Shown here: positions 4,159-24,910 of the stretch, piece after piece | Numbering within the stretch: position 1 is the stretch's first letter | Layout of the letters: the number at the start of each line of letters is the position of its first letter | Sequence record: KM389302.1 | Origin: Escherichia phage CBA6 | Length of the DNA: 25,398 nucleotides | Direction: 5' to 3' (one strand) | Notes under the pieces: model-generated | The model's database searches: none | What the model saw: only the letters and a program-made list of their open reading frames with translations | What the model was told of the DNA's origin: nothing | Made by a program: the position numbers and the translations under genes

Positions 4159-4181
4159 GACTTTACCCTCAATTTTGAAGG

Positions 4182-4188: not shown

Positions 4189-4219
4189 TCAATCATTAAT
4201 TCTTTTGAGGAATTGATAA

Positions 4220-4432: not shown

Positions 4433-4437
4433 AAAGA

Positions 4438-4457: not shown

Positions 4458-4460
4458 CTC

Positions 4461-5773: not shown

Positions 5774-5825
5774 ATCTTTATCCTCTATTGGTTTGGTGGG
5801 CTTTACGCCCACCTTTCAACATTAT

Positions 5826-8800: not shown

Positions 8801-10664
8801 GGATGAAGCTCGAAGTCACGTCCGCGCCAGTATCATTTTTGACAGATACCAATTTCCAGCCATCGTGATTTGCCAGAGGTCTACTGGTTTGGGAAGTAAA
8901 AGTCACAGACTCTGTGGTTTCAGTTATCGTCTTCGTTTTGATCGTGGCCGTAGTGCGGATCATCAGTGCCAGCAAATTGATTGACTGGTTAGCATTACCG
9001 CTACCCAGGGAAATCTGCAAAGCCGATCCCACCGGAGAACCAGTCAGTGACAAAGAGCCAGAGATATCAAATTGCGCTTCTGAACCATCGGATTTCGCAG
9101 AAGAATACAACGAAAATTCAGGAGAGAAACTATATCCCAGTGGGGCTGAAATAGAACCAGAACCGCTATTGTCCAGAGTGACTTTGTAAGTTCGGAGAAC
9201 GGTGTAGTTGATATCCACGGAACCTGTTGGCGCTAATGTTTTAACACCGAAGACCGGAAGAGAGAAGATCAGGTCTACCATAGAACTCTGGTTAAACTGG
9301 TTGGATTCCAGTTCAGCAGAGAACATGGTGATACCACTTTCTTCATAAGATACTTTGGTGATAGTGGACGCGTCCCCAGTCACAACCAAATCACGCATGT
9401 ACAGACGGAATTCAGTTGAATTGCGTTCAGCAGATATACACAACGCCGTGGCTTGAGCAGCTCCGGACGCGTTCAATAACTTGTATCGCACAGTGCGAGA
9501 TATTACTGGAACACCTTTGGAGTTCTTGGTGACCAGATAATTCCCTGTAGCGACTGCAACAGGCGTGTTATTCAGGACATCGGTATCCCGTGCCTTGTCA
9601 ACGATCACCAACTCTTCCCCGACGTTTTCGATACGACGACCGCGAACATAGGAAATACCTGGTTTCATTACAGACACGAATTTACTTTCGTCGCCGCCAT
9701 CAGCAGCATTGAATACACCACCATTGTTATTGACTTTCAAGTGTTCGCGGATGTCGATCTGATGCGTTGAAACGTTGTAATCGCCGTTGGTTTCATACGT
9801 CCGTTGAGCCAACGTGTCTTCCAGAATATTATAGGTGGACTGAGTCACCATAGACTGGATTTTACCATCACGAACTTTGGCCAGTTCAACAAAGTCTTCA
9901 ACCACAGCATCATAATCAAATCGAGATAAGACCAGATCTATTCGAAGACGATGAGCGCCTGGGGCTTTGGAATTAATCGTTCCCTGAGCATTTGAATAAA
10001 GGGATTCGTCTTCAGATTCAGTCACGATGGTTTCAGTGACTTTAAACCCGACGCGATGGGAAGAAGTGTTTGAAGTTTTATCGACGATGAGAGTCGCGTC
10101 ATCAACATCAAGGAACATTCCACGAATGAAGTAAACGCCCTTCGTCATACGAGCGACGATAGAACCAGTCACCGCAGCTGCGATACCATAACCAATACGA
10201 ATGAAGTTGTCATTGACGTCATAGGTTTGGAAATACAGATTGTCGTTGACGTGGAAGCCATCTGCATTACCCACTTCTGTCATTTCAAGGATGGCCAACA
10301 TCGTATCCGGAGCAGACAGATCACGTTCAAGAGATAGCACACGCGCTTTGGCGTTATTGTCTTTTCCCAGAACATAAAGTTCAGTAATCCCTTCCAGATC
10401 AGTGAACTCAGTGCCACCAGCCAGGGTGAATTTCATAGACACAGCGGCGTTGGTAATCGTCAGACCGCCAGGAATAACCATAGATCCATCTTTGAACAGA
10501 TGGTTTCCCAGCTTTTCAATCTGGTCTTGCAGAATAGTCTGCATCTGGTTCAGTTCACGTGTCTGAACCTTAATAGGCATCGGGCGAAAAAGAATCCGTG
10601 AAAACCGTTTTCCAGGATTCCAGTCGTCCCAATACGGGCGACGGTTTAGATTTGTAGATTGCAT
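5826..10664 (-). CDS. Very large virion structural protein (1612 aa), probably a tail fibre or baseplate component; function not assigned
   Basis: Uninterrupted 4.8-kb ORF in the late module. GGAG 9 nt upstream of the ATG, with CTAAATA and TATAAAT motifs further upstream. S/T/N/G-rich composition typical of fibrous phage proteins. No confident homologue recalled. Confidence 0.6.
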   Translation of the reverse strand: MQSTNLNRRPYWDDWNPGKRFSRILFRPMPIKVQTRELNQMQTILQDQIEKLGNHLFKDGSMVIPGGLTITNAAVSMKFTLAGGTEFTDLEGITELYVLGKDNNAKARVLSLERDLSAPDTMLAILEMTEVGNADGFHVNDNLYFQTYDVNDNFIRIGYGIAAAVTGSIVARMTKGVYFIRGMFLDVDDATLIVDKTSNTSSHRVGFKVTETIVTESEDESLYSNAQGTINSKAPGAHRLRIDLVLSRFDYDAVVEDFVELAKVRDGKIQSMVTQSTYNILEDTLAQRTYETNGDYNVSTHQIDIREHLKVNNNGGVFNAADGGDESKFVSVMKPGISYVRGRRIENVGEELVIVDKARDTDVLNNTPVAVATGNYLVTKNSKGVPVISRTVRYKLLNASGAAQATALCISAERNSTEFRLYMRDLVVTGDASTITKVSYEESGITMFSAELESNQFNQSSMVDLIFSLPVFGVKTLAPTGSVDINYTVLRTYKVTLDNSGSGSISAPLGYSFSPEFSLYSSAKSDGSEAQFDISGSLSLTGSPVGSALQISLGSGNANQSINLLALMIRTTATIKTKTITETTESVTFTSQTSRPLANHDGWKLVSVKNDTGADVTSSFILDGGQRDAGYYKANLLSTAGAISGTYTVVYQYFAHSSGDFFSADSYTSMDYKDIPNYTSSTSGAVYGLADSLDFRPKITNGTSDTDMVRPNTAVILDTEYYLPRIDAIYLADNGVFGVARGISSNNLASPAIPANSMRLYELLIPPYTPNIDDIQIRTIDNRRYTMRDIGKLETRISNVEYYTSLSQLESSAMTQQVFDPITGNPRFKNGIAADPFKDFRLIDDLSEDWMGSIDTENGRLRPFVQQNAVDMTPVGWNKVMDGMVVCNYTPEISVNQEYATTTINVNPYAVFNWEGFLKINPTTDYWFENYYVAPRVINETINTRGTVQEGSVYGTWRTVSVSDRVWEPHGAGGVWWGYRYRTTVSARDVTTYTYTDKTTTTMTGEQIVETQVIPYMREIDISFDASGLRPFTRMYAFFSGRDVNLYCKPNGGNFGDPITTDANGAVKGVFRVPQNDTIKFNTGDNVFRLTDSPVDSKSADDTLTNAEIVHKSFGKKQGIQKTFVNTRVLGYTASTSTETSTSEVVVDQWRDPIAQSFMVATKIGGEYIEGVEVFFSTKSRDVPITLEIREMENGLPSHTVITRKTLNPSEVTISTDSSGGTKFTFDYPVYLQASTEFAIVLLANTQDYNAYIAEMGKKNLLSNEYIAKQPYTGVFFTSSNGSTWSPNQMADMKFRVYRCNFAAGQNVVTFDPKLGPKQRPLGLNTLNCVSGSSVVTVFAPGHGLVAGNNVTLSELTGGCGFTPEQLNKTFTVTDASYTSFKIDVGSAADSNGQIGGDNASFLGNYLVDMFYASVTNSALEGSILKLEYRYRDATSNSMSDWAEFETDTDVALPTEGIYRQVGDFQIRATMTRSENNVYTAPMIDGDDLSVIFNSYGVDPFEDVFKYVTKDIGFDNPCSTVKLFFGAMLPSQSSMKVQVKLLRAGQEMDSVAWEDVTPTSPLVNDGSTFFEYEYDKTVASNNPFVGLKVRALVRGNRVAPPSFKDFRLIALA
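5837..5860. repeat. 24-nt exact direct repeat, copy 1 (caataagacggaagtctttgaatg), at the 3' end of the 1612-aa gene
   Basis: Identical 24-mer also at 8135-8158. Encodes the FKDFRLI motif at the protein C-terminus. Confidence 0.85.
8135..8158. repeat. 24-nt exact direct repeat, copy 2, internal to the 1612-aa gene
   Basis: Identical to 5837-5860. Encodes the internal DPFKDFRLID motif. Confidence 0.85.
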
Positions 10665-10696
10665 TTTGATGCTCCATCGAGTGCCATTTATAGAGA

Positions 10697-10703
10697 TATT
10701 TAG
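10697..10703 (-). promoter_or_regulatory. Candidate late promoter element CTAAATA (with adjacent TATAAAT) upstream of the 1612-aa gene
   Basis: Minus strand reads tataCTAAATAtctcTATAAATggcactcgatggagcatcaaaATG. Confidence 0.4.
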
Positions 10704-10757: not shown

Positions 10758-12719
10758 TCAACCGATTGTGAGATTAAATTCCATTTCTGTTACGACTGCA
10801 GATGGATTGTATAACGTAATTGTCCACGAAAAATCGTTAGTTTTCGAAATGACACAATATCTTCCTGTGCCTGGGGAACTAAAAGATGCCGCTAATTTAT
10901 TCATGCTTGTAAATGAATTTATCACCCAAACACCAGGAGATGTCTTCGTTACCGAACAATTAACTGCACTCGTCAGAGCACCAGAACCATTTACAATCAC
11001 TGATATTGGTTCGTCCAGAATTCTAACCACTCCGGAGTTTAATGAATATGAATTCATAACAGTTCCAATACGATTTCCCTGTAAATATGTGATGGCAGTA
11101 GAAGCCAGTCCCGTTCTATTCAACAATACATTTGTAACTCCCAAACCAGTACAACCCAATATTTGTGTGTCAGACACTAATCCAGACGTGGTGCTGGTTT
11201 GTTCACAAACCGCGTCCACAACATTACTACCGTTGTAACAATTGAAAGATACATTTATCAATTTATTTCGTCGTATTGATTTGCCTGCATTAGATTGTAT
11301 CTGTAATACACGGTTATATTGGCCAGGTGTATTAATCTGCACAAAACAATTTTGAATAACATTGTCATAACTATCAGTTAATGAAACGTTATGGTCAGAA
11401 ATACCGAAAGCAGATTTATAATCTCCATTATTGTTCATTTGAATAAAAACACCTTCAACGGTGTTATTGCTACAACCTTGTATTGCTATGACGTGGTCAT
11501 TCCCGTTAAATGCTCCTGCGGAAATAGAAACAAATTTACCACCAATGATTTTGCAGCCAGAACAACCTCTGGAAAATTTGATATTATTGTTGCCGCCAAC
11601 GACACCACCGACGTCGCCCAAATTAGCAGAACTCATTATTCCTTCACAATTTATGAATTGGAAATCTGTGGTTGGGAATCCAACACCATCTGCTGACGTC
11701 CCATGGAAATTAATCAATAACCCATTTTCCGCATAACCTTCAGATACATAGCCACCTTTACAACCCAGAACCTCCATATTCCCGCCAGCTTGAGAAACTC
11801 CAACGAATCTCGGATATGTGATTTCTGGGTACAATGCACCTATAATAACAAGGTTCCCGTGATTTGGTCCTTTAAAACCTGTATTTTCAAATACACATTT
11901 GTTAGACCTAACCCCAACACGCCGAGAATTATCAGTTGAACCATAAGATGTGTTCCCCAATCTTAATGGGGTTACTGTTGCTGTGGTTGTCGTGAAGACT
12001 ACACCCGAAACTTCAGTATAATTTCCTGTTAATTCGATAGCCCCTTTATTCGTGTCAAACGAATTCCCCAACAAATTGATTTTGTTTCCGTTGCCAATGA
12101 TGCGTTTACTGTCTAAATTGTTCACCACGTTGCTCGACAACCCAACATCTATATCTAAAATGATCGTATTATACACATTTAGAAGATCATTCAATATATT
12201 TGAAACGTCTTCGCCAGAAGAAACCCAATTAGATATGTATGTTTCTTTCTCGCCAATATTATTTTTTACAAAAATCCAAGCTGAACCAGAAATACCACCA
12301 GTATTTTCCAACTTTTGGGTAGAGGGAACAATTTTTGGAAGAGACCCACCCCAACGATAAAAACAATTATTATGGCGTATCATTTCATTCTTAGTACGGA
12401 TTGTAAACCCATCTGAAAACTCTTCCGTCATTTCGATAAATTCGCCGCGCAATACAGCCAGCGCACCCAAATCTACAGTGCCTCCGGAGTGCGTGAGGAT
12501 GCCGTCGACTAAACTAGTGACCGTTACAGCACCAATGTTAGAAGGAAGAGCATAGGCACGTTGGGTCACCTTATCGTAGATCACTTTATAACCAGACAAG
12601 GACTGCCCTGATTTCGCATAAACGACTTCCGACTTTTTACACCCAAATTTACGAGCAATACTGTCTTTGTTCGATTCTTTTGAAGTAGAACCTTTTGGTT
12701 GAGCAAATTGCGGATTCAT
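10758..12719 (-). CDS. Tailspike protein, putative polysaccharide depolymerase (653 aa)
   Basis: N-terminal module (ARKFGCKKSEVVYA...YKVIYDKVTQRAY...YRWGGSLPK) is shared with the other tailspikes. The rest is N/G/S/T-rich with short repeats typical of a parallel beta-helix. AGGAG Shine-Dalgarno. Confidence 0.7.
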   Translation of the reverse strand: MNPQFAQPKGSTSKESNKDSIARKFGCKKSEVVYAKSGQSLSGYKVIYDKVTQRAYALPSNIGAVTVTSLVDGILTHSGGTVDLGALAVLRGEFIEMTEEFSDGFTIRTKNEMIRHNNCFYRWGGSLPKIVPSTQKLENTGGISGSAWIFVKNNIGEKETYISNWVSSGEDVSNILNDLLNVYNTIILDIDVGLSSNVVNNLDSKRIIGNGNKINLLGNSFDTNKGAIELTGNYTEVSGVVFTTTTATVTPLRLGNTSYGSTDNSRRVGVRSNKCVFENTGFKGPNHGNLVIIGALYPEITYPRFVGVSQAGGNMEVLGCKGGYVSEGYAENGLLINFHGTSADGVGFPTTDFQFINCEGIMSSANLGDVGGVVGGNNNIKFSRGCSGCKIIGGKFVSISAGAFNGNDHVIAIQGCSNNTVEGVFIQMNNNGDYKSAFGISDHNVSLTDSYDNVIQNCFVQINTPGQYNRVLQIQSNAGKSIRRNKLINVSFNCYNGSNVVDAVCEQTSTTSGLVSDTQILGCTGLGVTNVLLNRTGLASTAITYLQGNRIGTVMNSYSLNSGVVRILDEPISVIVNGSGALTSAVNCSVTKTSPGVWVINSFTSMNKLAASFSSPGTGRYCVISKTNDFSWTITLYNPSAVVTEMEFNLTIG

Positions 12720-12750
12720 AATAAGAATCTCCTGTTTTTCTCTAGTAAAT

Positions 12751-12767
12751 ACCCTCCGAAGAGGGGT
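12751..12767 (-). terminator. Hairpin with a UUCG tetraloop between the 926-aa and 653-aa genes; possible attenuator or weak terminator
   Basis: Minus-strand RNA folds as accccuc-uucg-gagggu, followed by only a weak U tract. Confidence 0.35.
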
Positions 12768-12773
12768 ATATTT

Positions 12774-15554
12774 TTAAATAGAAGAATCCAATATACGGTA
12801 ACTAATTAACTTATTAGGGTCTACAGGATTAATCAGGTTGTAGTACCGTGAAGCTACATAATCATTCTCAGAAGAGAACATACCAACATACACTTTAGCA
12901 CCTACACCAGAACAGGCATCCCCACCAGCATTGCTATCCGAGAAGAATGTTAATGAAGAAGTTAATCCGAATATAGAATTAAATGGTACAGCTAAATAAG
13001 CGCCTCGGAATGACCGTCTGATTCTCTTACCCGTCTGAATATTAAGAATACTCCACCAGAAATATCCAGGTTTAGCACCAATAGCTATATGATATGGCAC
13101 ACCACTTTGTAGTTTAAGGTCGTTAGGTAAATCCCCAGATAAAATTTGGGTTGTACCATCGCCCCCCAATAGCAAAGCAATTGTTTGTTTTCCGGAAGCG
13201 TCTATAACTAATTGAAGATGAAGACTGTTGGATGTATCACTAAACCCTGAACCAATGGCCATGAAGTTAAATACTTCAGCTCCAGATATGGTAGGTACTA
13301 CAACAGCAGCCATGGTAATACCTTCTGGACCTGCTGTTCTTGAGTACAGTAATTTATCTTTGTTGGCTTGTGATAGTCTCAGACCATTTACTTGCCCTAC
13401 AGAAGATGGGACACTTACATAAACAGGTGTAGTGCTAACACCATCAAATGTAGGGGTCTCGTTCATGGTTTGCAAACCAGTCTTGGAATAATTAACCAAT
13501 CCGTTAATGCTCAGGTCGGAATTTGTGGGGTTGATAATATTGTTATCACCAATAAAGTTAATGCCCATATAACCAGTCTCAACCACACCATTAATGGTGA
13601 CGCTGCAATCATTAGACAGGAACTGAAAATTGCCCGCACTAGAGTTAGCACCTGAACCACTATTCGCGGCATAATTGAGTCCTACGAATCCGTTGATAAC
13701 TGCATCACTTTTGTTAAATACGATGTTGTAGAAAGTGTTGTTAGCGTTGATGCCGTTACGATTGGTGTTCAATCCGTTCATGGAAATTGAATATGAATCG
13801 CTAATCTCAATGCCATTCCCGCCACAATCTTGTACCTCAATACCATTAATAACCATATTCTGGCTATTATTAATAGTAATGCCTGGGAACTGTCCTACTG
13901 TACCATAAGGTTGCCAGTTAGCCCAAATGAATTTACCACCAATAATACGACCATTACCACAACCATCAAGAACCAGACATTGTTTACCGCAGGTATTAAC
14001 CTGGATATTTGTCCAAGTCCAATCAGTAGTAGCACAACGGACGCCCACCTGATTGATGTGGTTGACTAAAAGAGAATCTGTAGTAACACTAAAGTTACCA
14101 CTATCAATATTTAACCCATATTCATCAAAACCTGCTATATGGACCTTAGAAATACACAAGTCGCGTCTTGGGTCTGCGGTAGTGTGGAACGGATAATCAG
14201 CTGAGAGACCTGAAGGAGTTTCTATATAGATACCTGTTGTACCCGCAGTAAATGATGTGCCTTGTTGTGCACCTGTGCCATATACCCCAAAGGAGTCTAA
14301 TACAATAAGGGAGCATGTATCTTTTATGGTAATACAATTCCCAGTAGCAGAAGGCAACTGATGCAACCTGGAGTAATGTAATCCAGACCCATAAATAGAC
14401 GACGTATTATATTTTAACCGGATATTGCTAACGTAATGTACACCAGTTAATTGTGTGGCCTTACCACTGTCCACACAAGATTGTACTGGAATAGTATCAT
14501 CATTAGAACCGCCCAAAGCACCAAACATGAATGGGTTAACTCTATCAGCATTAACACGTAACCAGGCTGCGCCTCCAACAGTTTTGATCACAGTGCCGTT
14601 ATCATCAGTCTTTCCTGTACCATCAATTAACGCACGGAATACCCCTCCACCAAGAAGAGTACCCGCAGTGTGTTGCTTAAGAATAATGCGTTGTCCATCC
14701 ATAGTGGGTTCAGTATTCCTGAGATCAGCAACAGAATGGCATTCTCCGATATACTTGGCACCATCATTGCGCCCCAGAGTGTTTATCACATTAATAAATG
14801 AATCTTCTAAAGGCAACAAATCCACTACAACATTACCTGGATTATAAGTAAGTTGCCCATTACTAACAGAAGAAATCACTGAACCATCAGGGATAGTTGG
14901 TAAACCATAAATAATCTGCGCCGCTGAATCATAAACAACTTTCTTGTCGTCGAGTAAAGATATGGTATCAGTGCTGACAATGACTTCAGAGTCTTTTACG
15001 TTAGCCGAACGGGCAATTTCTTGGATACTGCGATCGAACGCCGGACTGATGTTCGGTTGTTTAACAGACATCTCCGCAACAACCCACACCCCTGCAGTCA
15101 GCGCAGTTTGTAAGGAAACTTTCCCAGTCGTACTGTTGTATGAATATTCTATATCAGGAGTTTTGTACTCACCACCGATATAAAGAGACTGGACACCATA
15201 AGAAGTAAAGTCAGGCGTGAATTCAGTTTCTCCACCCACGGCTTGAAATTTGTATATTCGAATACCTTTAGAAGTATCTTCTGGTGAAAGAATTTTATCG
15301 AATAAGCAATACACAACATCGCCTTTGGACAATGCGCGCCCGAGATTCAACGTATTCCCGTCTATCTCGAAGTTGTCTAACGGAACTTGCATGCCGCCGT
15401 TAATTGTGATAACACCAGTGACAGGATAGAAAGGTAGAGAAAAGAAAGTTTCTCCACCGACACTTGATTTATAAGTGAAAGGAATCTGGTGGGGAGCTGT
15501 GACTACGCCGCCGAATAATTCTTCTACATTTCTGGTCATTTGAAAATACCCCAT
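12774..15554 (-). CDS. Tailspike protein with a T7 gp17-like N-terminal anchor domain and beta-helix body (926 aa)
   Basis: N-terminus IPFTYKSSVGGETFFSLPFYPVTGVITINGGMQVPLDNFEIDGNTLNLG fits the pattern of podovirus tail-fibre N-terminal anchors. Central region has tandem NG-rich beta-helix coils. The start may instead be the second ATG at 15539 (MTRNVEE...). Confidence 0.7.
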   Translation of the reverse strand: MGYFQMTRNVEELFGGVVTAPHQIPFTYKSSVGGETFFSLPFYPVTGVITINGGMQVPLDNFEIDGNTLNLGRALSKGDVVYCLFDKILSPEDTSKGIRIYKFQAVGGETEFTPDFTSYGVQSLYIGGEYKTPDIEYSYNSTTGKVSLQTALTAGVWVVAEMSVKQPNISPAFDRSIQEIARSANVKDSEVIVSTDTISLLDDKKVVYDSAAQIIYGLPTIPDGSVISSVSNGQLTYNPGNVVVDLLPLEDSFINVINTLGRNDGAKYIGECHSVADLRNTEPTMDGQRIILKQHTAGTLLGGGVFRALIDGTGKTDDNGTVIKTVGGAAWLRVNADRVNPFMFGALGGSNDDTIPVQSCVDSGKATQLTGVHYVSNIRLKYNTSSIYGSGLHYSRLHQLPSATGNCITIKDTCSLIVLDSFGVYGTGAQQGTSFTAGTTGIYIETPSGLSADYPFHTTADPRRDLCISKVHIAGFDEYGLNIDSGNFSVTTDSLLVNHINQVGVRCATTDWTWTNIQVNTCGKQCLVLDGCGNGRIIGGKFIWANWQPYGTVGQFPGITINNSQNMVINGIEVQDCGGNGIEISDSYSISMNGLNTNRNGINANNTFYNIVFNKSDAVINGFVGLNYAANSGSGANSSAGNFQFLSNDCSVTINGVVETGYMGINFIGDNNIINPTNSDLSINGLVNYSKTGLQTMNETPTFDGVSTTPVYVSVPSSVGQVNGLRLSQANKDKLLYSRTAGPEGITMAAVVVPTISGAEVFNFMAIGSGFSDTSNSLHLQLVIDASGKQTIALLLGGDGTTQILSGDLPNDLKLQSGVPYHIAIGAKPGYFWWSILNIQTGKRIRRSFRGAYLAVPFNSIFGLTSSLTFFSDSNAGGDACSGVGAKVYVGMFSSENDYVASRYYNLINPVDPNKLISYRILDSSI

Positions 15555-15640
15555 AAAGGATTTGCCAATATGGGGTATTTAGTCTGAACTAATAAAATTT
15601 TATGAACAAAGGTATGATAAAAACCCCGCCGAAGCGGGGT
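15548..15640. repeat. About 90-bp intergenic cassette, copy A
   Basis: Near-identical to 17678-17770. Contains a palindrome (aaatacccca / tggggtattt), the CTAAATA motif, and the UUCG-loop terminator. Confidence 0.8.
15576..15582 (-). promoter_or_regulatory. Candidate late promoter element CTAAATA upstream of the 926-aa tailspike gene
   Basis: Minus strand reads cagaCTAAATAcccc, 21-36 nt upstream of the candidate ATGs. Confidence 0.4.
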
Positions 15641-15647
15641 TTTTATC
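15616..15647 (-). terminator. Intrinsic terminator with a UUCG tetraloop, downstream of the 675-aa tailspike gene
   Basis: Minus-strand RNA folds as ccccgc-uucg-gcgggg followed by uuuuauc. Confidence 0.65.
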
Positions 15648-17673
15648 AATCGGCCGTTTTGATTGGTGAATACAGCCCGCCTCCGCGATGAATCCATGCA
15701 TAAACGTTATCTGTAGTTGGGGTTATCGCCGAACTCCGATAGAACATAAAACCAACAGGAGCACCGCTATAGTTAGGCATGGCATTATGTTTGCCTTTCG
15801 CTTTGTCCCACCCGCAAAACGTTGGCATTGGCGTTGCATGATATGCTGACGCATACACGCCGCCTATAGCAATCGACTTACCAGAATTTGTAGTAATCAT
15901 AATACGAGATGCTTTTGTTCTATCAACAGGTGCTGAAATTTTGTATAATCTCCAGCCATTTCCCATGTCGTAGAACTTAGTAGGATCACCGTAAATAGAA
16001 CCCTGTCCATCTGCCGATTGAATGTAAATGGAGTTAGGCTCACCACGCACAAACAGGGCGGCTCGAACGAAACCTGTAGCTGAACGAAGGCAGTTGATAG
16101 CAAAGTATACTTGTTCCGATACGCTTTCGTACCCTACATATCTACCGCATCCTGAAGGCTCATTTGCATCGGTTCCAAAAACCAAACCAGAATTAAGCCC
16201 ATTGAAGTCTACAGGATATCCGTTATTGTTAATAACACTCCAGTCACCACTTTGGCAAAGGTTTGAACCGCTCATGGATATAAAGTCACCACCCTGCATT
16301 CCAGCAGTATGGTCACTGAACATCGCGTGGTTCATATAGTGCATTGAACTTGCCATCATGCCGAATTGGCAACGATAACCGACAATGGACCACGGACCGC
16401 GGATTTTACCGTTTCCGTTTACTTCGCCATATAGACCAATGACGGTGTTATGCTGCGCAGGTACAGACACGTTGTCTAGAACATACCCCGCCGAACCACT
16501 AGCGTCCAGACCGACGAATGTGTTCGCATTACCTTCAGTATTACCACCTTCTGGAACCCATGTATGAGAACCTTTAATAAGAACTGAACCCACACATTGG
16601 GTGTATACGTTTTGATTACAAGACCCGGAAGATATATCAATAATAATTTGCCCGCCACCGGATGTGGTTCCAGCACGAATACGCGTGAAGTTATTCCAGT
16701 AACTACCACCGCGCCAAGGAATTAAGCCTGTAGGCGTAGTTTCTATACCGCCTTTTAACGTGAAGTTTGCCGAGCAATCTATGTTAGATATGTTATGAAA
16801 TTGTGCACCTTGAACTAACATATTACGACAGCTAATACCCTGTATGTCCAAAGAACGCGCATGAAGTATTAAAAAATCCGCATCAGGGATAATACCAAGA
16901 CACTCCACATTACAACGAACAATAAATTGTGCGTAATAAGCGTGATAGCCGGACAAATTGGCTATTGAAGTTTTGTAAATTCCTTTTGGTATGAATAACT
17001 TTCTTCGGTTTTTACCATACTCAACGAGAGCATTATAATCACTGTTAATCGCATCCAGAGCGGCACAAATAGCTGCTGTGTCATCCGTGACCCCATCCCC
17101 TACGGCACCCCATCCTCGAATGTCACCTTCATCACGCCAGCGAGCCATCTGCAATTCTGGGTAAAGAGTGGCTCCACTTGGATTAGTAATCTGGCTTCTT
17201 AATGACGCATCACCAACACTAACCCATGCACCTAAATCAACGCCGCCTGAGTTATCGGGTGTAGAACCAGCGGCAACTACCTTTGGCAAAGAACCATCCC
17301 ATCGATATTTTTCATCATCGTGAACAAGAAGTTCATTTTTCACATTAATGGTATGGCCGAAATTAAAAGAACCAGGTAAAGTCACATATTCTTCGCGGCT
17401 TACTGCTAATTCCCCAAGGTCTACAGAACCAGCGGAATGAGTGAGGATAGCTCTTTCATCCAGACTAATTGCAGTTGTCCCTGAAACAATACCGGAAGGG
17501 AGAGAATAAGCCCGTTGGGTAGACTCATCATAAATTACTTTAAATCCACTGAGATCAATACCGACAGTGAAATAAACGACTTCGTCTTCTTTGACACCGA
17601 AATTTCGAGCGATAGATTGTTTGTTAACTTCTATGGAAGTAGAGCCGCGTGGTTGATTGAATTGAGAAATCAT
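15646..17673 (-). CDS. Tailspike protein, putative depolymerase of the pectate-lyase-like beta-helix type (675 aa)
   Basis: Shared N-terminal attachment module (ARNFGVKEDEVVYF...FKVIYDESTQRAY...YRWDGSLPK). GWGAVGDGVTDDTAAICAAL matches the hallmark N-terminal motif of pectate-lyase-superfamily beta-helix enzymes. Confidence 0.75.
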   Translation of the reverse strand: MISQFNQPRGSTSIEVNKQSIARNFGVKEDEVVYFTVGIDLSGFKVIYDESTQRAYSLPSGIVSGTTAISLDERAILTHSAGSVDLGELAVSREEYVTLPGSFNFGHTINVKNELLVHDDEKYRWDGSLPKVVAAGSTPDNSGGVDLGAWVSVGDASLRSQITNPSGATLYPELQMARWRDEGDIRGWGAVGDGVTDDTAAICAALDAINSDYNALVEYGKNRRKLFIPKGIYKTSIANLSGYHAYYAQFIVRCNVECLGIIPDADFLILHARSLDIQGISCRNMLVQGAQFHNISNIDCSANFTLKGGIETTPTGLIPWRGGSYWNNFTRIRAGTTSGGGQIIIDISSGSCNQNVYTQCVGSVLIKGSHTWVPEGGNTEGNANTFVGLDASGSAGYVLDNVSVPAQHNTVIGLYGEVNGNGKIRGPWSIVGYRCQFGMMASSMHYMNHAMFSDHTAGMQGGDFISMSGSNLCQSGDWSVINNNGYPVDFNGLNSGLVFGTDANEPSGCGRYVGYESVSEQVYFAINCLRSATGFVRAALFVRGEPNSIYIQSADGQGSIYGDPTKFYDMGNGWRLYKISAPVDRTKASRIMITTNSGKSIAIGGVYASAYHATPMPTFCGWDKAKGKHNAMPNYSGAPVGFMFYRSSAITPTTDNVYAWIHRGGGLYSPIKTAD

Positions 17674-17706
17674 GATAATGCCCCATAAAGGATGACCAAT
17701 ATGGGG

Positions 17707-17713
17707 TATTTAG
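17707..17713 (-). promoter_or_regulatory. Candidate late promoter element CTAAATA upstream of the 675-aa tailspike gene
   Basis: Minus strand reads cagaCTAAATAcccc, 33 nt upstream of the ATG at 17673. Confidence 0.4.
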
Positions 17714-17745
17714 TCTGAACTAATAAAATTTATGAACAAAGGTAT

Positions 17746-17770
17746 GATAAAAACCCCGCCGAAGCGGGGT
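17746..17770 (-). terminator. UUCG-tetraloop hairpin, third copy of the conserved terminator
   Basis: Same ccccgc-cgaa-gcgggg sequence as at 10735-10750 and 15624-15639. Confidence 0.55.
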
Positions 17771-17776
17771 TAATGA

Positions 17777-17929
17777 GAAGCGCATGAACAAGAATATCGC
17801 GCAGAAAAGTCAGGTAAGCGCATAAAGGAACTCGAAGCGGAGAACGCCAGACTACGGCAGCAACTGGACGCGGCGAACGCGCAACTGTATTTTATTCTGG
17901 AGAATCTTAAGACGCAGCAGGTGGATTAA
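17777..17929 (+). other. Start-less 51-codon open frame encoding a coiled-coil-like peptide; possible gene remnant or acquired fragment
   Basis: Frame reads EAHEQEYRAEKSGKRIKELEAENARLRQQLDAANAQLYFILENLKTQQVD and ends at TAA 17927-17929. There is no in-frame ATG/GTG/TTG after the upstream TGA. The segment looks GC-richer than flanking phage DNA and is followed by a strong terminator. Confidence 0.3.
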
Positions 17930-17933
17930 GGAA

Positions 17934-17964
17934 AAGGCCCCGTAAGGGGCCTTAGTTTTATTTT
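17934..17964. terminator. Strong bidirectional intrinsic terminator
   Basis: aaggcccc-gtaa-ggggcctt followed by agttttatttt on the plus strand. It also lies just downstream of the minus-strand core tailspike stop at 17958. Confidence 0.7.
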
Positions 17965-20900
17965 GTACTAACGAAATCAAATTCGTGAAGAGCCATTGAA
18001 CCTGATGATATTCTTGCATCTAGTAAGGTGCCATCAATGGAAATTAACTTTTTATTCGCAATTGTTCCTATAAGAACACCATTACTAAAAAACTGAACTA
18101 TACCAGGTCCTTTACCGTTGTATTTAGCGGTTAAAGCGCCCTTCATTGGAGCTGAAGGTAAAGCAATGACGGTCTCTACTCCAGCAACGGATATAACACC
18201 ACGTATATCACTCCCTGTATTAAATCTGAATCCGAAATAGTTTCCTGATTCGAAACTTCCGGAATGTAATAGTCCTCCTGGTATGTTTTGCATGCTCCAT
18301 GCGATACTAAAGGCGCGGTAGTTGTTTGTCTCAAACTCATACGTTAATCGATGTTTTCTTGTTACACGATACCGACAAGTTCCACCAGAACTTGCTGCTT
18401 GCATATATAACCCATCATCCTCGAAATAAGTAAATGTGTCCGCAGGCTGAACTGTTGTTTTAGTGAATTTATCATGGTCCTGGAAAAGTGTATGGTAATG
18501 CGTTATGTCGTGGCGAGCGAATGCGTTCACACCCATGATTGTTTTAGATGCTTGTTCTATAATAAAACCAGCCATAACGCCATCAGAATACATTTGCGCT
18601 TTTTGACCAATAACAGGATGAAAATCATTCGCGATAATAGCCCCACCAATCGGCAGCGCGACATATTCGGTTAGCACCCCAGATGCTGGTGGTAGATTAT
18701 CAAGTTGGGTGCTGTTATAGTTAATAATACCGCCGTGTTTTGTTACTAATCCTGCCTTATTTATCGCGTTTCCAAATTGCGGCGATTCAACGCTTATTGT
18801 ACTGTTGTAAGCCTCAATGCATTTATCGACGCCTACGCCGTTGAATGATGGTTGAAATACGCCACCGCTGGTGCAGCCATAAAATTCAATGGATGCGTTT
18901 TCGTCAGAATGCGTGCGCCCCTTGAAGTTAATCTGTTCAATAGATGGTGAATATGGGGTTCCGCCACAGTTGAACAGTTGAATAGAGTTAAGGCTAACTT
19001 TGCTTGGGTCTGCTGACCTGCTCCCAATTTTTATTCCGGCTTGCTGGCTTGAACTAGGAGGGAACAATGGCGTACACCCACGCTTACTGCGAACAACGAC
19101 ATCCTCAGGAGTACCGGTGTTGCCGTAATTATCTGCAATACTAATTACAATTCGCTGCCAGTAATTGTTTGGAATGGCATCAACGGCATCTTGTACAGTG
19201 GGGTAATCTTCCGGAACCATGAGTGTTACAGGCATCGTGTAAATACCTGGCACTGTTGACGAGTTAACACCAAATGGGTGAATGTAACCACGATACGGAT
19301 CATTACCTCCGATAGTATTGATAAACCCTTCGATGCGCACTTTTGATGTATCAGTGTACAGATATCCACACTCGCCAATATCTACGCGGAACTTCGCAGG
19401 GATAGTCAGATCTTCTGTAAATTTCACTGGAACATTGACAAAAACACGACCATTACCAGAAGCTATGGCGCGTTTGAAAGCCTGCGTGTAGTCTGGTGCC
19501 GCTGGGTCTCCTGGCTCAACAAATGCGCGAAGGTCATAAAGTCTTTCCTGCTGACCGCCAGGGATTAAAAAACCTTTATCTCCTGTTAATTCAGTTCTTA
19601 ATGATGCATCACCAACGCTAACCCATGCACCTAAACCAACGCCGCCAGTTGTTGTCGGAGTTGAGCCAGGAGCCACAGTTTTAGGAAGTGTCCCATCCCA
19701 ACGATACTTACCGTTCGTATGGGTGAGTAATTCATTTTTAACATTGATAACAGCACCAGAATCAAATGTCCCAGACAAGGTAACATATTCTTCACGAGAT
19801 ACAGCTAATGCGCCCAGATCAACACTACCAGCAGAATGCACAAGTACAGCCGAAGAACTAAGGCTGACTGCCGTGGTTCCAGTCGGTAGCTCTGGAATAA
19901 AATATGATCTCTGTGTTACTTTATCATAGATAACTTTATACCCGCTTAACACCGCACCAACACTAAAATAAACAACCTCTGTATCTTTAACATTGGTTAC
20001 ACGAGCCACTTCCCGCAAAGTATAATCAATTTGATTATAGATGTTTGGCGTTCCATTGATAATTACAACAACTTCATCCTCTGCATCCAGTTCTTGCGCA
20101 AGAGTGATTTTACTGGTTAATGGATCAAATGTGAACCCCAGATTTTTATACTGGCGACTTCCGTTTATATCAATGGCCGGAACATCATCGACAACGATGT
20201 CTAACGTGATTTCGGTTTCACCACCAATCGCAGAACCCCCATTATAGACCCAGGTAATCGTAGAAGAACTAGAACCACCGCCATTACCCAATTGAATAGG
20301 AGTATATTCAATCACCTGAAGTTCTGTGCTGGCTGGCAAAGAAGGACTGAAAGTGATCACATTCCCATCTAGTGAATATTTGGATTCCGCAAGACGTTTT
20401 CCGTCAGCATACACGTCCACGATTGTTGGTGGCGTATTGAGAGTGACAGCGCTTGTTTCAGACGCCAAAATTTGTGTAAAAATCTCACGACTGTAGACAC
20501 GGCCTTGGCCAAGGCCGACGCCGGATGTGACAACCCAACCTTGTTCAGGCCCAGACCAAGTGAAAGTCGCCGACACGTTATCGGTGGATATCGTCATATC
20601 TTCGGTGGAGCCGTAAAGGTTATTTCCCGCTGGAGATACAGTCAATGGGTAAGTGGCGAATTTTCCATAAGCATCACAAATAGTAACGGAATCCCCAACA
20701 CGTGTAGGGGGAGGGAGAACCACTGTAGATGCCCCTGTGGTGTTATTAATGAGATAGCCGCGACCTTCTAACAAATTGCTAGAGGGAGCGTGAGGGAGCG
20801 TTTCCCAGCGTATTCCACCGCCCCCCCAAAGACAACCAACCACCGTTTTCGTAATAACCTTCAAATTCATCGCTATCAGGATTGTAACGTACAGAAGATG

Positions 20901-21051
20901 GAAGACCTGCAACTTCAGTATCTTCAGGGAATGTCATTACGGCACCAGGGGAATGCTCAATAGTGCCGGAGTTGTTGAAGCCTTTTATGTTCGAAGACTC
21001 AGAAGTTTCTAAACCCAAAGGGAAAAGAGGCTGTGTTGGTTTGTTAGCCAT
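17958..21051 (-). CDS. Core tailspike with a T4 gp10-like N-terminal baseplate-attachment domain; reading frame broken at a G7 homopolymer (about 1030 aa if fused)
   Basis: The 90-aa ORF (20779-21051) has a native-looking N-terminus (...VRYNPDSDEFEGYYENGGWLSLGG). After a one-base frame change at the tract it continues into the 984-aa ORF (GGIRWETLP...GRGYLINNTTGASTVVLPP...). The nominal N-terminus of the 984-aa ORF has no ribosome-binding site. Downstream are T7 gp17-like modules, a complete copy of the shared tailspike attachment module, and a beta-helix body. Confidence 0.65.
20821..20827. repeat. G7 (plus-strand C7) homopolymer tract at the frame junction of the core tailspike gene
   Basis: Minus strand reads TTG GGG GGG CGG. 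Deleting one G gives the in-frame fusion ...GGWLSLGGGGIRWETLP... Confidence 0.9.
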
Positions 21052-21088
21052 TTGTAATACCCCTAAATGTATTCATGTCATCTAGGGG

Positions 21089-21095
21089 TATTTAG
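21089..21095 (-). promoter_or_regulatory. Candidate late promoter element CTAAATA upstream of the gp10-like core tailspike gene
   Basis: Minus strand reads aaaaCTAAATAcccctagatgacatgaatacatttaggggtattacaaATG, with a tacccct(a) / (t)aggggta palindrome. Confidence 0.4.
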
Positions 21096-21097
21096 TT

Positions 21098-22288
21098 TTA
21101 GAAATAAGCTGCAATAGAATAATCGACAGAACAAGCGGTTGTTGTATTTGCATTAACAACGGAAATTCTCAATTTGCCACCCACCACAGACCCTGTGAAC
21201 GTCACTGTACCGCTCGTACTTTTCTGAACCAACAACTCTGATTTGATCGTTCCGTCACGAGTTATGGTTACTCGATATGTGTCAACAACGTTACCTGTCC
21301 CCCATTGCGCAGTTACCAGTATTTGACAAAGGTTTACCAAATCAAAATCTGGAAGAGCCGTCGTTCCCGAAGCCGAAACCGTGTATGACGACAAATTCGT
21401 TTTGGTACGATAAACTGCGTTCCCTAAACTGTTATCAATTGTGGTCATTTTGGCATTATACGTTGATACATCGACCTTACCAGTCGTGAGAGAACTGATA
21501 CTGCCGTCCAAGGAAGTCATCTTCGTATTATATGTGCTGACCTCGACTTTATTACCCAGAGACGTGTTGATATTGGAGATACTCAAATCCAACGACGCCA
21601 TCTTAGTGTTGTAAGTTGAGGTGTTGACTTTCCCGTTCAACGACGTGTTGATGTTATTAATCTGGGACTCTAGACTCAGCATATCTGCGTCATACGCTGT
21701 CGTTGTCACATATCCATTAAATCGGTTGTCTGCAAACAACGCATCAAAAAATGCAGTCATTGTCCAATAACGCGCTCCAGAATCTGTCTGTACAGGAACT
21801 GAAGTCGGCAACGTTGGTCCGGTATACGCAGACAATCTGGTGAAATCCAAATTGAATTTGTAATATCCGGATGTCAACAACTCCCCAGCCAAACCAGAAC
21901 CAGGCGGGGTAGTGTCTTCACTGACGCCATGCTTTCTCAACATGCTCAGGTTAACACCATCTGTCGAGTTCGTTGGTTCATCTGTGATTGAAACGGATTT
22001 TCCAGCGGGGACTTGTATGCCCCCATTGGTCACCAACAAAGCATTGAAAGTCTTTTTGCCATTGATTGTTTGTTCACCACTATCTGTCCGAATAACTTTG
22101 TTGGCCAGAGTATCATTGATTGTGTCAACAGATCTTTTCAACTCATATGTCAGACGAGCAGATGGTGGAAACAACGGGTCGTTAACTTCAAAATCGTTAA
22201 TAACGTCATTTTTACTTACTTTGTCATCAACAGAACCCAATATCTGATCTATCTGCTGACCTGTATATTGACTCAGGAAATCGGCCAT
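21098..22288 (-). CDS. Fibrous protein with tandem ~24-residue repeats (fibritin- or tail-fibre-like)
   Basis: 396 aa. Repeats STYNTKMASLDLSISNINTSLGNKVEV / STYNTKMTSLDGSISSLTTGKVDV / STYNAKMTTIDNSLGNAVYRT (about nt 21390-21680). TINGKKTF...GGIQVP is a tail-fibre-like motif. AAGGAG Shine-Dalgarno. Confidence 0.6.
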   Translation of the reverse strand: MADFLSQYTGQQIDQILGSVDDKVSKNDVINDFEVNDPLFPPSARLTYELKRSVDTINDTLANKVIRTDSGEQTINGKKTFNALLVTNGGIQVPAGKSVSITDEPTNSTDGVNLSMLRKHGVSEDTTPPGSGLAGELLTSGYYKFNLDFTRLSAYTGPTLPTSVPVQTDSGARYWTMTAFFDALFADNRFNGYVTTTAYDADMLSLESQINNINTSLNGKVNTSTYNTKMASLDLSISNINTSLGNKVEVSTYNTKMTSLDGSISSLTTGKVDVSTYNAKMTTIDNSLGNAVYRTKTNLSSYTVSASGTTALPDFDLVNLCQILVTAQWGTGNVVDTYRVTITRDGTIKSELLVQKSTSGTVTFTGSVVGGKLRISVVNANTTTACSVDYSIAAYF

Positions 22289-22290: not shown

Positions 22291-23145
22291 TTAGCTCCTT
22301 GTGCTTTCTAGGAATACAGTAAATCCAGCAGGATGGAAATGCTGACGGAAGACGCGCTCAAACACACCTTCAAAATCAGATACGTCGCCTGGGACTCCTA
22401 TAACATAAGTGTATTCATCATAATAGTAATCATCACGCATCCCTGTCGTGCCGTCACATTCAAAATTTCCGTCCAGACCGCCTATGTCTTCTTTCGTAAA
22501 ATAGACGCTGACTGGACAACCGAAATATATCCAAAAGAACAATTCAATCGCTTTCTTTGTTCCACGTATTTTATAGATGTGTTTCAACAATTTCAGCCAA
22601 CGCGGATGATCCAGAGTTCTTCGTTTAGTTCCTTCGATATAAACAGAGAACGTATCGCCCGTGGCCGTCAATAAAGAATCCGAACCGACTGGGATAAAAT
22701 GTCCAAATTCTTGAAATGATTTATCGACAGTTCGTTGAAACCCAAAATCATTATACCAGTCGTCTATCTGCTTGTTCTTGTCTTCAATAGAAAGCAACGG
22801 CCTTCCATCAGCGTCTAGCAGCGTCTCGGCATCAAGAGCCATCATGTTCTCAAATGTTCTGACCAAAAATTTATCTGACAAATAATCTTTGGCTTCAGAG
22901 CCTGGCGTTTTGTCGGCCTTTAAATCTATGAGTTGTTTAACAGGAGAATCTTCACTCTCAGGATTCATCCAACTCGAAGTGTCTGCCAGATATGCCAAAA
23001 TTTCTTCTTGAGTGAAGCCCTGCTGCCGATACAGCCAATTAAAGAACGTGTCCATGAACTCGATGAACAGAGGAAAATCGTTTTGGTAAAACAACGGGGT
23101 TTCATACTTAACCCCATTGTGACCATTATTAAGATCTTTGGACAT
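22291..23145 (-). CDS. Hypothetical baseplate-associated protein (284 aa from the ATG at 23145)
   Basis: Located between the gp6-like and fibrous genes. GAGG Shine-Dalgarno 8 nt upstream of the ATG at 23145. Start overlaps the gp6-like end by 17 nt. Confidence 0.5.
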   Translation of the reverse strand: MSKDLNNGHNGVKYETPLFYQNDFPLFIEFMDTFFNWLYRQQGFTQEEILAYLADTSSWMNPESEDSPVKQLIDLKADKTPGSEAKDYLSDKFLVRTFENMMALDAETLLDADGRPLLSIEDKNKQIDDWYNDFGFQRTVDKSFQEFGHFIPVGSDSLLTATGDTFSVYIEGTKRRTLDHPRWLKLLKHIYKIRGTKKAIELFFWIYFGCPVSVYFTKEDIGGLDGNFECDGTTGMRDDYYYDEYTYVIGVPGDVSDFEGVFERVFRQHFHPAGFTVFLESTRS

Positions 23146-24910
23146 AGCGCACCTCTGGCGTAACAACCACATCACCGATTTTGAATACCTGGTTTTGTGA
23201 AGCCTGTATATTCTGATTCAGGCCATCTGGTAGCACAACGATCGTTACTCCTTCAGTATTATAGTTTGAAACCGTAATCTGCTGAAGATCTACGACGCCG
23301 TTGGCGTAATCCACAACACCAGTCTTTTGAACCAAAAATTCTTTAGTGGTGTCGTTGTTGTTCACTTTATACATGTTCAAATCGCCATTGTCATCGCGCA
23401 TATAATAAGTGAAATCAACTTCGGCCGGAAGCGGTTTAAACCCTGTTATTTTCACAGAACCAGGTTTAATGCTTCTCCCATAACTGAAAGTAAAGCTATC
23501 CAACACACCATAATCAGGTTTGAAATGACGTTTATAACCGACAGACGTGATATTTGAGTTAATGGAACGTTCCATTTTCGTAATTGCTTCCTGCAATATC
23601 TCTTTGTCGAATAACTGATCAAAACCACCGAGATTGTTTTCACCCCATTTGGTGATACTATTACCCACCACCACTTTCATTTGTTCTTCAACATAAACCG
23701 TTGAAGTCGGATCCCAAAATATAGTCGTGGCGACTTGGATATATGTGATCTCAGAATCTACCACTTTGGGGGTGATGGACCCAACGTTGTATTTGTCCAA
23801 CGCGGCAACGATATCAGCCTTCTCTGCGTCTGAAAGAGTCTCCCCAACAGATGGTATCACAGCGATATAAACGTAACCAGAATCCGGAGGGGAAAGCGTA
23901 TCACCCCCATATGATTTAGCACGGGCAACGTTAGAAAACAAGCGTTCAGTTAAAACACCGTAATCGGTTTCCGTAACGGCAGCGCCATCAGCCTGATAAG
24001 CCAAAGGTGCCAGACGCTTCGTATCTTCAATAGATTCCGGATCTCCCCCACCCGCACTGCGTTCGGAAACCAATTCTATATCAACCTGGTTAAACCCGCC
24101 TATCGAAGATGCGGAAGATAAACTAGTGATGTCATTACCTTCAGCGCCAGAAGTTTCTAAATACTGGAGGAAAATAACGTTGCCATCTTCTACTCGGCGA
24201 GACAGATAACCATCTCCGAACTCAAACACATACAGGCCATCTATCCCTAATTCCACAAAATAGAGATATGCATATTGATTCAGGTCGAACGGACTGTTGT
24301 ATCTCTGGTATGTCGTTGAAACATCAGAGGACTCTGATTCCTGTACCTGTACGACCAGATGATTGATATCAACATTTTCCGAAGGTATCGTATAAGTCGA
24401 AATCGCGCTTCCTTCAACATCATATGTCTTGTACAACCAGTTACCCTGAATCAGTTTCACGTTGTTGAACATGTAATAACCGTCTGTTGTCAACGTGGCG
24501 GACACGGGTTTTTCAACAGTAAAGTTGTAGGAACTCCCATCCTTCGCCCCAACGAACATCACACGGCGGTCCATAATGATCTCATTAGGAGCTGTACTGG
24601 CGTCATACGGCGTTACTTTGATGTTGGCATACATGTATGCCGCCCGATAGTTGTCGGGGGTATAAGAAAGAAAAGCAGCAGACAAACCAACATTAGAACG
24701 TTGATTTGCTGTTTTTAAATGGCCTTCACCATTAAGCATGTTCTGCATAAAGGCTATGGCGTTCGCATCAGATGCCAACAAACGAATAATAGCACTAAGA
24801 CCGGAACCTTCAAAGTCATAATCTTTAAAGGTGGGATCAGCTTTCATTCGCTGTTTGATAATGTACTCAAAGGCTCTGACGTCGAGTGAAGGAACTGTTT
24901 GCGTGGCCAT
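23129..24910 (-). CDS. Baseplate wedge protein (gp6-like)
   Basis: DYDFEGSGLSAIIRLL and GGGDPESIEDTKRLAP resemble recalled T4 gp6 motifs. The listed ORF start at 24961 is TTG; the ATG at 24910 has GGAG 7 nt upstream. Confidence 0.65.
   Translation of the reverse strand: MATQTVPSLDVRAFEYIIKQRMKADPTFKDYDFEGSGLSAIIRLLASDANAIAFMQNMLNGEGHLKTANQRSNVGLSAAFLSYTPDNYRAAYMYANIKVTPYDASTAPNEIIMDRRVMFVGAKDGSSYNFTVEKPVSATLTTDGYYMFNNVKLIQGNWLYKTYDVEGSAISTYTIPSENVDINHLVVQVQESESSDVSTTYQRYNSPFDLNQYAYLYFVELGIDGLYVFEFGDGYLSRRVEDGNVIFLQYLETSGAEGNDITSLSSASSIGGFNQVDIELVSERSAGGGDPESIEDTKRLAPLAYQADGAAVTETDYGVLTERLFSNVARAKSYGGDTLSPPDSGYVYIAVIPSVGETLSDAEKADIVAALDKYNVGSITPKVVDSEITYIQVATTIFWDPTSTVYVEEQMKVVVGNSITKWGENNLGGFDQLFDKEILQEAITKMERSINSNITSVGYKRHFKPDYGVLDSFTFSYGRSIKPGSVKITGFKPLPAEVDFTYYMRDDNGDLNMYKVNNNDTTKEFLVQKTGVVDYANGVVDLQQITVSNYNTEGVTIVVLPDGLNQNIQASQNQVFKIGDVVVTPEVRYVQRS

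Follow-up and report, generated by a model that had tools for sequence, protein, structure and literature searches.

A probable Kuttervirus tsp1-tsp4 cluster in Escherichia phage CBA6, predicted to encode a branched complex of four tailspikes

Positions 10758 to 21051 of the 25,398-nucleotide (nt) stretch of Escherichia phage CBA6 analyzed here (record KM389302.1; the whole stretch is referred to as the window) very probably hold the tsp1 to tsp4 cluster of a Kuttervirus (Ackermannviridae) of the CBA120/ViI/Det7 type, which is predicted to encode a branched receptor-binding complex of four tailspikes. All of the large open reading frames (ORFs) in the window are on the minus strand, and the window is gene-for-gene colinear with the CBA120 segment that starts with the large terminase gene (orf198) and ends with the gp6 baseplate wedge gene (orf217). 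Over positions 1 to 10700, the window shares 99.2% identity with Salmonella phage ViI and with phage Sa157lw, and this identity, together with the colinearity, argues for the assignment to Kuttervirus. The interval corresponds to CBA120 orf210 to orf213, which are tsp1 to tsp4. The four tsp genes are consecutive between a gene encoding a DUF4815 (VriC-like) protein and the baseplate wedge genes, an order also found in CBA120, Guerrero, sal1, and AV101. An earlier reading made from the sequence only (the sequence-only reading) had proposed a branched complex built from a gp10-like core and accessory spikes, with multiple glycan specificities on a T4-like chassis. That proposal matches the experimental findings on CBA120, whose gp10-like core protein bears additional spikes of several glycan specificities (Plattner 2019; PMC8825819); the locus is colinear, and the assembly domains are 95 to 97% identical to those of CBA120.

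The domain layout of the spikes follows from these comparisons. The product of tsp1 (10758 to 12719, minus strand; 653 amino acids [aa]) consists of a D1-D2 head (12255 to 12719) and a receptor-binding domain (RBD; 10761 to 12254), and that of tsp3 (15646 to 17673, minus strand; 675 aa) likewise consists of a D1-D2 head (17179 to 17673) and an RBD (15649 to 17178). The 926-aa ORF of tsp2 (12774 to 15554, minus strand) encodes XD2-XD3 (about 15036 to 15539), D1 (about 14790 to 15035), and a beta-helix with a C-terminal domain (12777 to 14789); its product has 921 aa if the start is Met6 (window 15539), as in the CBA120 annotation. Finally, tsp4 (17958 to 21051, minus strand; 1030 aa after removal of one G) encodes an anchor domain (20827 to 21051), XD1 (20517 to 20813), XD2 (20304 to 20486), XD3 (20046 to 20258), a D1-D2 head (19581 to 20030), and an RBD (17961 to 19580). 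The sequence-only reading had described four large proteins of 653, 926, 675, and about 1030 aa; the first three are intact, but the fourth is split into two ORFs as sequenced.

A common module is found in TSP1 (residues 1 to 155), TSP3 (residues 1 to 165), and TSP4 (residues 341 to 490; window 19581 to 20030), with pairwise identities of 42 to 60%. All three copies match PF18668 (Tail_spike_N; “Tail spike TSP1/Gp66 N-terminal domain”) above threshold, with E values from 3e-12 to 9e-29, the latter for the TSP3 head. TSP1 and TSP3, which both start directly with the D1-D2 (TD1-TD2) head, score 46.7 and 99.8 bits (cutoff, 25). The copies also match the crystallized head domains of CBA120 TSP1, TSP3, and TSP4, and the TSP1 head matches PDB entries 4QNL, 5W6F, and 4OJ5 at E values of 1e-36 to 1e-43. 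TSP2 has a partial copy (residues ~173 to 250) that aligns with only the first half of the module (D1) at 27 to 35% identity, which fits the published architecture of CBA120 TSP2, a protein that has D1 but not D2 (PMC7506556). An attachment module shared by three spikes, an internal copy of it in the core protein at about 19590 to 20030, and a weaker match in the 926-aa protein had all been claimed beforehand, and each is borne out. Judged from the Pfam and structural matches, the module is the known D1-D2 head domain.

Aligned with their homologues, the spikes have RBD swaps that fall just after a conserved head/neck motif, GAWVSVGDASLR. Comparison of trimmed alignments with hhalign found no mutual profile similarity among the RBDs of TSP1, TSP3, and TSP4 (probability of 1% or less); trimmed alignments were used because untrimmed ones paired only the N termini of the homologues. 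The idea that these RBDs are diverged copies of one another was rejected on this basis. With TSP2 included, there are four distinct RBDs and, presumably, four distinct receptors.

Among the four, the safest functional call in the locus is that TSP2 is specific for the O antigen of E. coli O157. It is 97% identical to CBA120 TSP2 (orf211) over 921 aa and matches PDB entry 6W4Q with 2027 bits, and from residue 250 onward (the RBD) it is 98.7% identical to the CBA120 crystal structure, by which it is a beta-helix. The catalytic and auxiliary residues D506, E568, D571, R594, and Y623, which were defined by mutagenesis of CBA120 TSP2 (PMC7506556), are all retained. The assignment to O157 is thus based on both the level of identity (97 to 98.7%) and the conservation of the catalytic residues.

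Over its whole length, TSP1 shares 90% identity with its counterpart in Salmonella phage vB_SentM_sal1, a protein of the same size (653 aa). Its RBD is 92% identical to those of phages sal1 and SeF3a and 65% identical to that of TSP1 from Agtrevirus AV101, a predicted beta-helix protein that breaks down the O8 antigen of E. coli (PMC10791037). By these identities, TSP1 belongs to the sal1/SeF3a subtype and is related to the O8-specific TSP1 of AV101, although an identity of 65% is too low for the O8 specificity to be transferred to the TSP1 of the window. Apart from TSP1, the three remaining spikes of sal1 and of AV101 are different from those encoded here. When the alignment profile of the TSP1 RBD was compared with PDB sequences, the matches were to head domains only, with no match to a beta-helix, and a Pfam scan of all homologues of this RBD likewise found N-terminal domains only.

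The two remaining spikes have conserved N-terminal parts joined to RBDs of a different origin. The TSP3 head is 88% identical to that of CBA120 TSP3, but the similarity ends shortly after GAWVSVGDASLR and the remainder is unrelated. Similarly, residues 1 to 335 of the restored TSP4 (anchor, XD1, XD2, and XD3) are 97.3% identical to CBA120 TSP4 and match PDB entry 7REJ at an E value of 2e-165, and the D1-D2 head is 91.6% identical to that of CBA120 TSP4, but the similarity ends about 15 residues past the same motif and the last 540 residues are unrelated. No close relative of either RBD was found among 50,697 phage genomes, in which the best matches were proteins of Vibrio phages with 24 to 34% identity. 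IMG/VR has no relative of the TSP3 RBD and a single relative of the TSP4 RBD, which is 60% identical and is encoded at positions 6001 to 7587 of an 8.3-kb contig (UViG_3300028481_000082).

Full-length relatives of both RBDs were found in a collection of 5.8 billion proteins. Those of the TSP3 RBD (71% and about 50% identity) are mostly proteins of E. coli, Enterobacter hormaechei, Citrobacter, and Morganella that have a P22-type head-binding domain, and those of the TSP4 RBD are from a Citrobacter werkmanii cluster (80%), C. cronae (70%), and E. coli (67%). The gene for a relative of the TSP3 RBD is found in the order Arc, tailspike, integrase, as in a P22-like prophage, and that for a relative of the TSP4 RBD is found in the order GpJ, tailspike, O-antigen acetyltransferase, integrase, as in a lambdoid prophage; these contexts indicate that the relatives are prophage tailspikes. 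On the metagenome scaffold that encodes the 80% identical homologue of the TSP4 RBD (6049 to 8019), the tailspike gene is directly followed by a gene for an O-antigen acetyltransferase (Acyl_transf_3 plus SGNH) and then by an integrase gene. These genes represent a seroconversion module that adjoins a spike presumably directed at the same antigen.

The sequence-only reading had proposed structure prediction as a check, and monomer models of TSP3 and TSP4, made with AlphaFold2 from these alignments, give beta-helix folds. Both models have a beta-helix and a C-terminal beta-sandwich, with a mean predicted local distance difference test score (pLDDT) of 84 for TSP3 and 83 for TSP4, and Foldseek matches them to beta-helix tailspike depolymerases with a probability of 1.00 (K2-2 TSP, CBA120 TSP4 and TSP2, DpK2, Depo32, and the Sf6 tailspike). 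On the strength of these models, a beta-helix is predicted for the RBDs of both TSP3 and TSP4. A pectate-lyase-type signature had also been claimed for the 675-aa protein. The corresponding motif, GAVGDGVTDDTAAI, is present at TSP3 residues 189 to 202 (window 17068 to 17109), but PF12708 (Pect-lyase_RHGA_epim, formerly Pectate_lyase_3) scores only 17.7 to 18.2 bits, against a gathering threshold of 27, and covers only residues 187 to 233. The GAVGDG motif of TSP3 supports a pectate-lyase-like beta-helix fold and not lyase chemistry. Pfam searches with the isolated RBDs of TSP1, TSP3, and TSP4, run to E values of up to 10, yielded no match above threshold.

We give an even chance to the proposal that the TSP3 and TSP4 RBDs represent two undescribed Kuttervirus tailspike subtypes that were acquired from phages, temperate or Jersey-like, of E. 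coli, Citrobacter, or Enterobacter, and that the tsp4 cassette retains a piece of a donor gene. If so, an O157-infecting phage would also recognize two further O or K antigens, possibly of another genus.

Whether the new RBDs, that of TSP4 in particular, could be carbohydrate esterases (deacetylases) or pure binding domains and not glycosidases or lyases has to be considered, since precomputed matches to the pectinesterase family PF01095 exist for some homologues of the TSP4 RBD and an O-antigen acetyltransferase gene adjoins that of its closest prophage homologue. Furthermore, ViI and G7C reportedly possess deacetylating spikes. However, PF01095 (CE8 pectin methylesterase) does not match the TSP4 protein of the window even at an E value of 10, and inspection of the TSP4 RBD by eye did not reveal the CE8 motifs QDT and DFIFG. 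In addition, the best Foldseek match of the TSP4 model is CBA120 TSP2, which is a glycosidase, and three acidic residues of the TSP4 RBD (D216, E217, and E222) are invariant or nearly so and fit the carboxylate pair of tailspike glycosidases. An esterase or a pure binding function is therefore unlikely. The narrower idea of TSP4 as an esterase resembling pectin methylesterases was rejected, as the evidence for it is at the level of the fold only.

Since the assembly domains are 95 to 97% identical, the scheme described for TSP1 to TSP4 of CBA120 (PMC8825819, PMC11721090) is expected to apply to this phage as well. Trimeric TSP4 would be anchored to the baseplate via its N-terminal anchor domain, its gp10-like XD2 would bind the XD2 of TSP2, and its XD3 would dock the D1-D2 head of TSP1. 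TSP3 would join only after TSP4:TSP2 had formed, most likely on the XD3 of TSP2. The terminal beta-helix domain would differ from spike to spike, each binding and cleaving one surface polysaccharide, such that a single virion could use four receptors. TSP2 has N-terminal XD2-XD3 plus the single D1 head domain, as seen from its full-length identity with CBA120 TSP2; by analogy, it would be a second branching node that carries TSP3, not a weakly attached accessory. By the same analogy, the docking surfaces of the core would be XD2 and XD3 of TSP4 (window 20046 to 20486), and the internal copy of the module is TSP4's own D1-D2 head.

This arrangement differs from that in the sequence-only reading, in which the spikes attach through the module itself (VKDxEVVYF...YRWDGxLPK) and the copy inside the core protein is an extra docking or branching site. 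The module is found at the N termini of TSP1 and TSP3, which are the parts that contact the core (PMC8825819), and it is conserved while the C termini vary, as would be expected of such a device. However, in CBA120, deletion of XD3 abolishes the binding of TSP1 and deletion of the XD2 of TSP2 abolishes the binding of TSP2 (PMC8825819). Moreover, the internal copy precedes TSP4's own beta-helix exactly as the heads do in TSP1 and TSP3, and TSP2, with an XD2-XD3 of its own, acts as the second branch point. It is very unlikely that the internal copy serves as a docking site, and this part of the earlier proposal gives way to docking on XD2 and XD3.

The core gene is not in frame as sequenced. It is divided into a 90-aa ORF (20779 to 21051), which encodes the anchor domain, and a 984-aa ORF (17958 to 20912), because a minus-strand homopolymer of seven Gs (C7 on the plus strand; 20821 to 20827) is present where CBA120 and Guerrero have six. 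The resulting +1 frameshift falls within the Gly76-Gly79 linker between the anchor and XD1. All of the relatives examined are in frame, and deletion of one G in silico yields the 1030-aa TSP4. An independent Logan assembly of run SRR547957 contains the same phage: one of its contigs matches the window at 100% identity over 2.1 kb, and another does so at 99.97% over 7.3 kb, with two single-base gaps as the sole differences between the latter and the window. The Logan assembly agrees with the relatives at the G run (G6) and is one A short (A3) at a run some 20 nt farther upstream that is AAAA in both the window and the relatives. This disagreement over homopolymer length, at different sites in the two assemblies, is the signature of homopolymer miscalls.

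A similar indel is found in terL (minus strand; ORF 20 to 2152), which has a +1 homopolymer indel at window positions 38 to 41 (position 41; C4 versus C3 in ViI). It is the only indel between positions 1 to 10700 of the window and ViI, and it shifts the frame at the 3′ end of the gene, such that the product has 710 aa and ends in GGLVVGRHSIWN, compared with 736 aa in ViI. This is probably a sequencing error like that in tsp4. Because the relatives have G6, the Logan assembly has G6 together with a different indel, and terL carries a similar indel, we infer that the tsp4 frameshift is a homopolymer sequencing error and that the real gene is intact. A real frameshift is highly improbable. In that case, the phage or part of its population would make an anchor fragment of 90 aa and a TSP4 that lacks its anchor, and the spike complex would be lost or switched through slippage of the G run in the glycine linker. 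In its favor, each of the two assemblies has a frameshift no more than about 25 nt from the Gly76-79 linker (G7 in the window and A3 for A4 in Logan), and a mixed population could in principle yield both patterns. Against it, the assemblies disagree on which homopolymer is off while being otherwise identical over 7.3 kb, the relatives examined are all in frame, the large terminase, an essential protein, is truncated by a +1 homopolymer indel of the same type, and without the anchor domain no receptor-binding protein would stay attached. Programmed frameshifting or phase variation at the G run was rejected on the same evidence.

Several points weigh against the reading of the locus as encoding a complete branched complex of four enzymatic spikes. 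The assembly of the complex, its location in the virion, and the enzymatic activity of its spikes are all drawn from homology, with physical assembly on the baseplate and activity on host polysaccharide established for CBA120 and only a few relatives, and the intact state of tsp4 is likewise something that we infer. The beta-helix of the TSP1 RBD is taken over from a homologue of 65% identity that is itself predicted to have this fold. The docking of TSP1 onto XD3 is less certain because its head shares only 48% identity with that of CBA120 TSP1. Finally, the models of the TSP3 and TSP4 RBDs are monomers of moderate confidence (pLDDT of 83 to 84), and the TM-scores of their Foldseek matches are low (0.3 to 0.4) because the models have several domains.

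Three exact copies of CTAAATACCCC are found in the window, compared with 0.27 expected by chance, and all of them are on the minus strand, 17 to 33 nt upstream of start codons: at 21085 to 21095 (tsp4), 17703 to 17713 (tsp3), and 15572 to 15582 (tsp2). No copy precedes tsp1. This sequence resembles a late-promoter element and probably corresponds to the Kuttervirus late-promoter consensus given in the genome papers on CBA120 and AG3; tsp2, tsp3, and tsp4 would each have a promoter of their own. Terminator-like hairpins are found 3′ of all four tsp genes. Two conserved intergenic terminator elements form a 47-nt direct repeat on the minus strand (98% identical; 15595 to 15641, after tsp3, and 17725 to 17771, after tsp4) with the hairpin AAAACCCCGCCGAAGCGGGGTT, and terminator-like hairpins are located at 17752 to 17771 and 15615 to 15648. 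The repeat could act as a homology arm for the exchange of whole tsp cassettes. Judging by these elements, the tsp genes appear to be self-contained cassettes, each with a terminator and, in the case of tsp2, tsp3, and tsp4, also the late-promoter-like motif.

The spacer between tsp4 and tsp3 is 284 nt, compared with about 100 nt in CBA120 and Guerrero, and the 185 extra nt are located at 17773 to 17957. Directly after the tsp4 stop codon, they contain a GC-rich hairpin, AAGGCCCCGTAAGGGGCCTT (17934 to 17953), which resembles a hairpin of Salmonella phage MA12 located between its tailspike gene and a small gene. On the plus strand, they contain the 5′-truncated remnant of a small coiled-coil gene (17777 to 17929), with 50 codons, no start codon, and an end at RIKELEAENARLRQQLDAANAQLYFILENLKTQQVD followed by the stop. 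In tblastn searches, the remnant peptide matches 443 phage records, mostly Jerseyvirus or Kagunavirus, with up to 87.5% identity. In MA12, the intact gene (55 aa; ANN86084) is convergent and just downstream of the tailspike gene, with the similar hairpin between the two, and the DNA of the remnant is about 90% identical to that of MA12 over about 85 nt. The remnant is probably a recombination scar from the import of the tsp4 RBD cassette, which would have brought along its terminator and the 3′ portion of the gene next to it in the donor; the donor would have been a phage with a Jersey-like tailspike arrangement. None of the Jerseyvirus genomes in the collection carries the TSP4 RBD of the window. 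The 3′ end of tsp4 together with the scar has no blastn match in 5,426 complete E. coli genomes, and hence no E. coli prophage donor was found among them. An imported cassette is consistent with earlier publications, in which prophages and unrelated virulent phages are seen as partners of Ackermannviridae in the exchange of receptor-binding modules (PMC8432352, PMC10791037).

The genes that border the cluster are those expected from CBA120. Downstream is a gene for a 1612-aa DUF4815 protein (5826 to 10664, minus strand; PF16075, E = 5e-60), which corresponds to CBA120 orf209 (“VriC/VrlC-like”); beyond the DUF4815 gene are two small ORFs and, after them, the gp13 neck gene. The DUF4815 protein, which is annotated as “virulence-associated” VriC/VrlC in relatives, adjoins the tsp cluster in every Ackermannviridae locus examined. 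The upstream border is a gene for a 396-aa orf215-like protein (21098 to 22288, minus strand), also colinear with CBA120, followed by genes for a baseplate wedge subunit (22291 to 23175, minus strand; PF23786, E = 6e-154) and a gp6-like protein with the gp6 domains PF21379 and PF21387 (23129 to 24961, minus strand). The sequence-only reading had placed the spikes between the gp6-like and gp13-like genes, which holds only loosely, since five further genes are also found there (the wedge gene, those for the 396-aa protein and the 1612-aa DUF4815 protein, and the two small ORFs). The 396-aa protein contains about three tandem copies of a unit of about 22 residues (..VSTYNTKMxSLDxSISxxxTSLGxKV..) and has a weak, subthreshold match (18.9 bits) to the N-terminal domain of lactococcal-phage BppL. 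It may be a fibrous baseplate protein.

Overall, the architecture is textbook for Ackermannviridae, and the Kuttervirus arrangement, its assembly logic, the modular exchange of its spikes, and the recombination-prone head region are all known from earlier descriptions. The locus settles no open question and has modest practical value. What is specific to this sequence is the combination of a sal1-type TSP1, an O157-type TSP2, and two RBDs absent from sequenced phage genomes, along with the scar of a donor gene after tsp4 and the two homopolymer errors. It adds two RBDs and one four-spike combination to the catalogue used for prediction and engineering of Kuttervirus host range (e.g., chimeric spikes for the detection of Shiga toxin-producing E. 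coli [STEC] or Salmonella), and it provides a concrete footprint of how an RBD may have arrived, as a whole cassette with its terminator and part of the donor's neighboring gene. It also flags two homopolymer errors in a deposited contig that would otherwise be annotated as broken tailspike and truncated terminase genes.

The closest known system is the branched TSP1-4 complex of CBA120 (Plattner et al. 2019; PDB 4OJ5, 5W6P/6W4Q, 5W6F, 5W6H, and 7REJ), whose gene order and flanks are the same as those found here. TSP2 is 97% identical over its full length, catalytic residues included, as are the anchor and XD1-3 of TSP4, and the heads of TSP3 (88%) and TSP4 (92%) are also close. The differences are in the TSP1 heads (48%), in tsp4, which is frameshifted as sequenced here, and in the RBDs of TSP1, TSP3, and TSP4, which in CBA120 target Salmonella O21, E. 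coli O77, and E. coli O78 and are unrelated to those of the window. T4 gp10 and the G7C adaptors gp66/gp63.1 likewise use trimeric XD2 and XD3 jelly rolls as docking platforms for trimeric fibers or spikes (PMC8825819), but T4 gp10 binds gp11 and gp12 and not enzymatic spikes, with a sequence identity of about 10% according to the literature, and the G7C adaptor has only two branches. The cassettes of Jerseyvirus (Guernseyvirinae), such as that of MA12, have the same order of tailspike gene, GC hairpin, and small convergent coiled-coil gene, but the small gene is intact there and a 5′-truncated remnant in the window. The P22-like and lambdoid prophage tailspikes of E. coli, Citrobacter, and Enterobacter have Head_binding (PF09008) or Tail_spike_N N termini and RBDs 50 to 80% identical to those of TSP3 and TSP4, but their N-terminal attachment modules are wholly different (the head-binding domain of P22 or a siphovirus context), and they are single spikes on temperate phages, whereas those encoded in the window would be parts of a branched complex.

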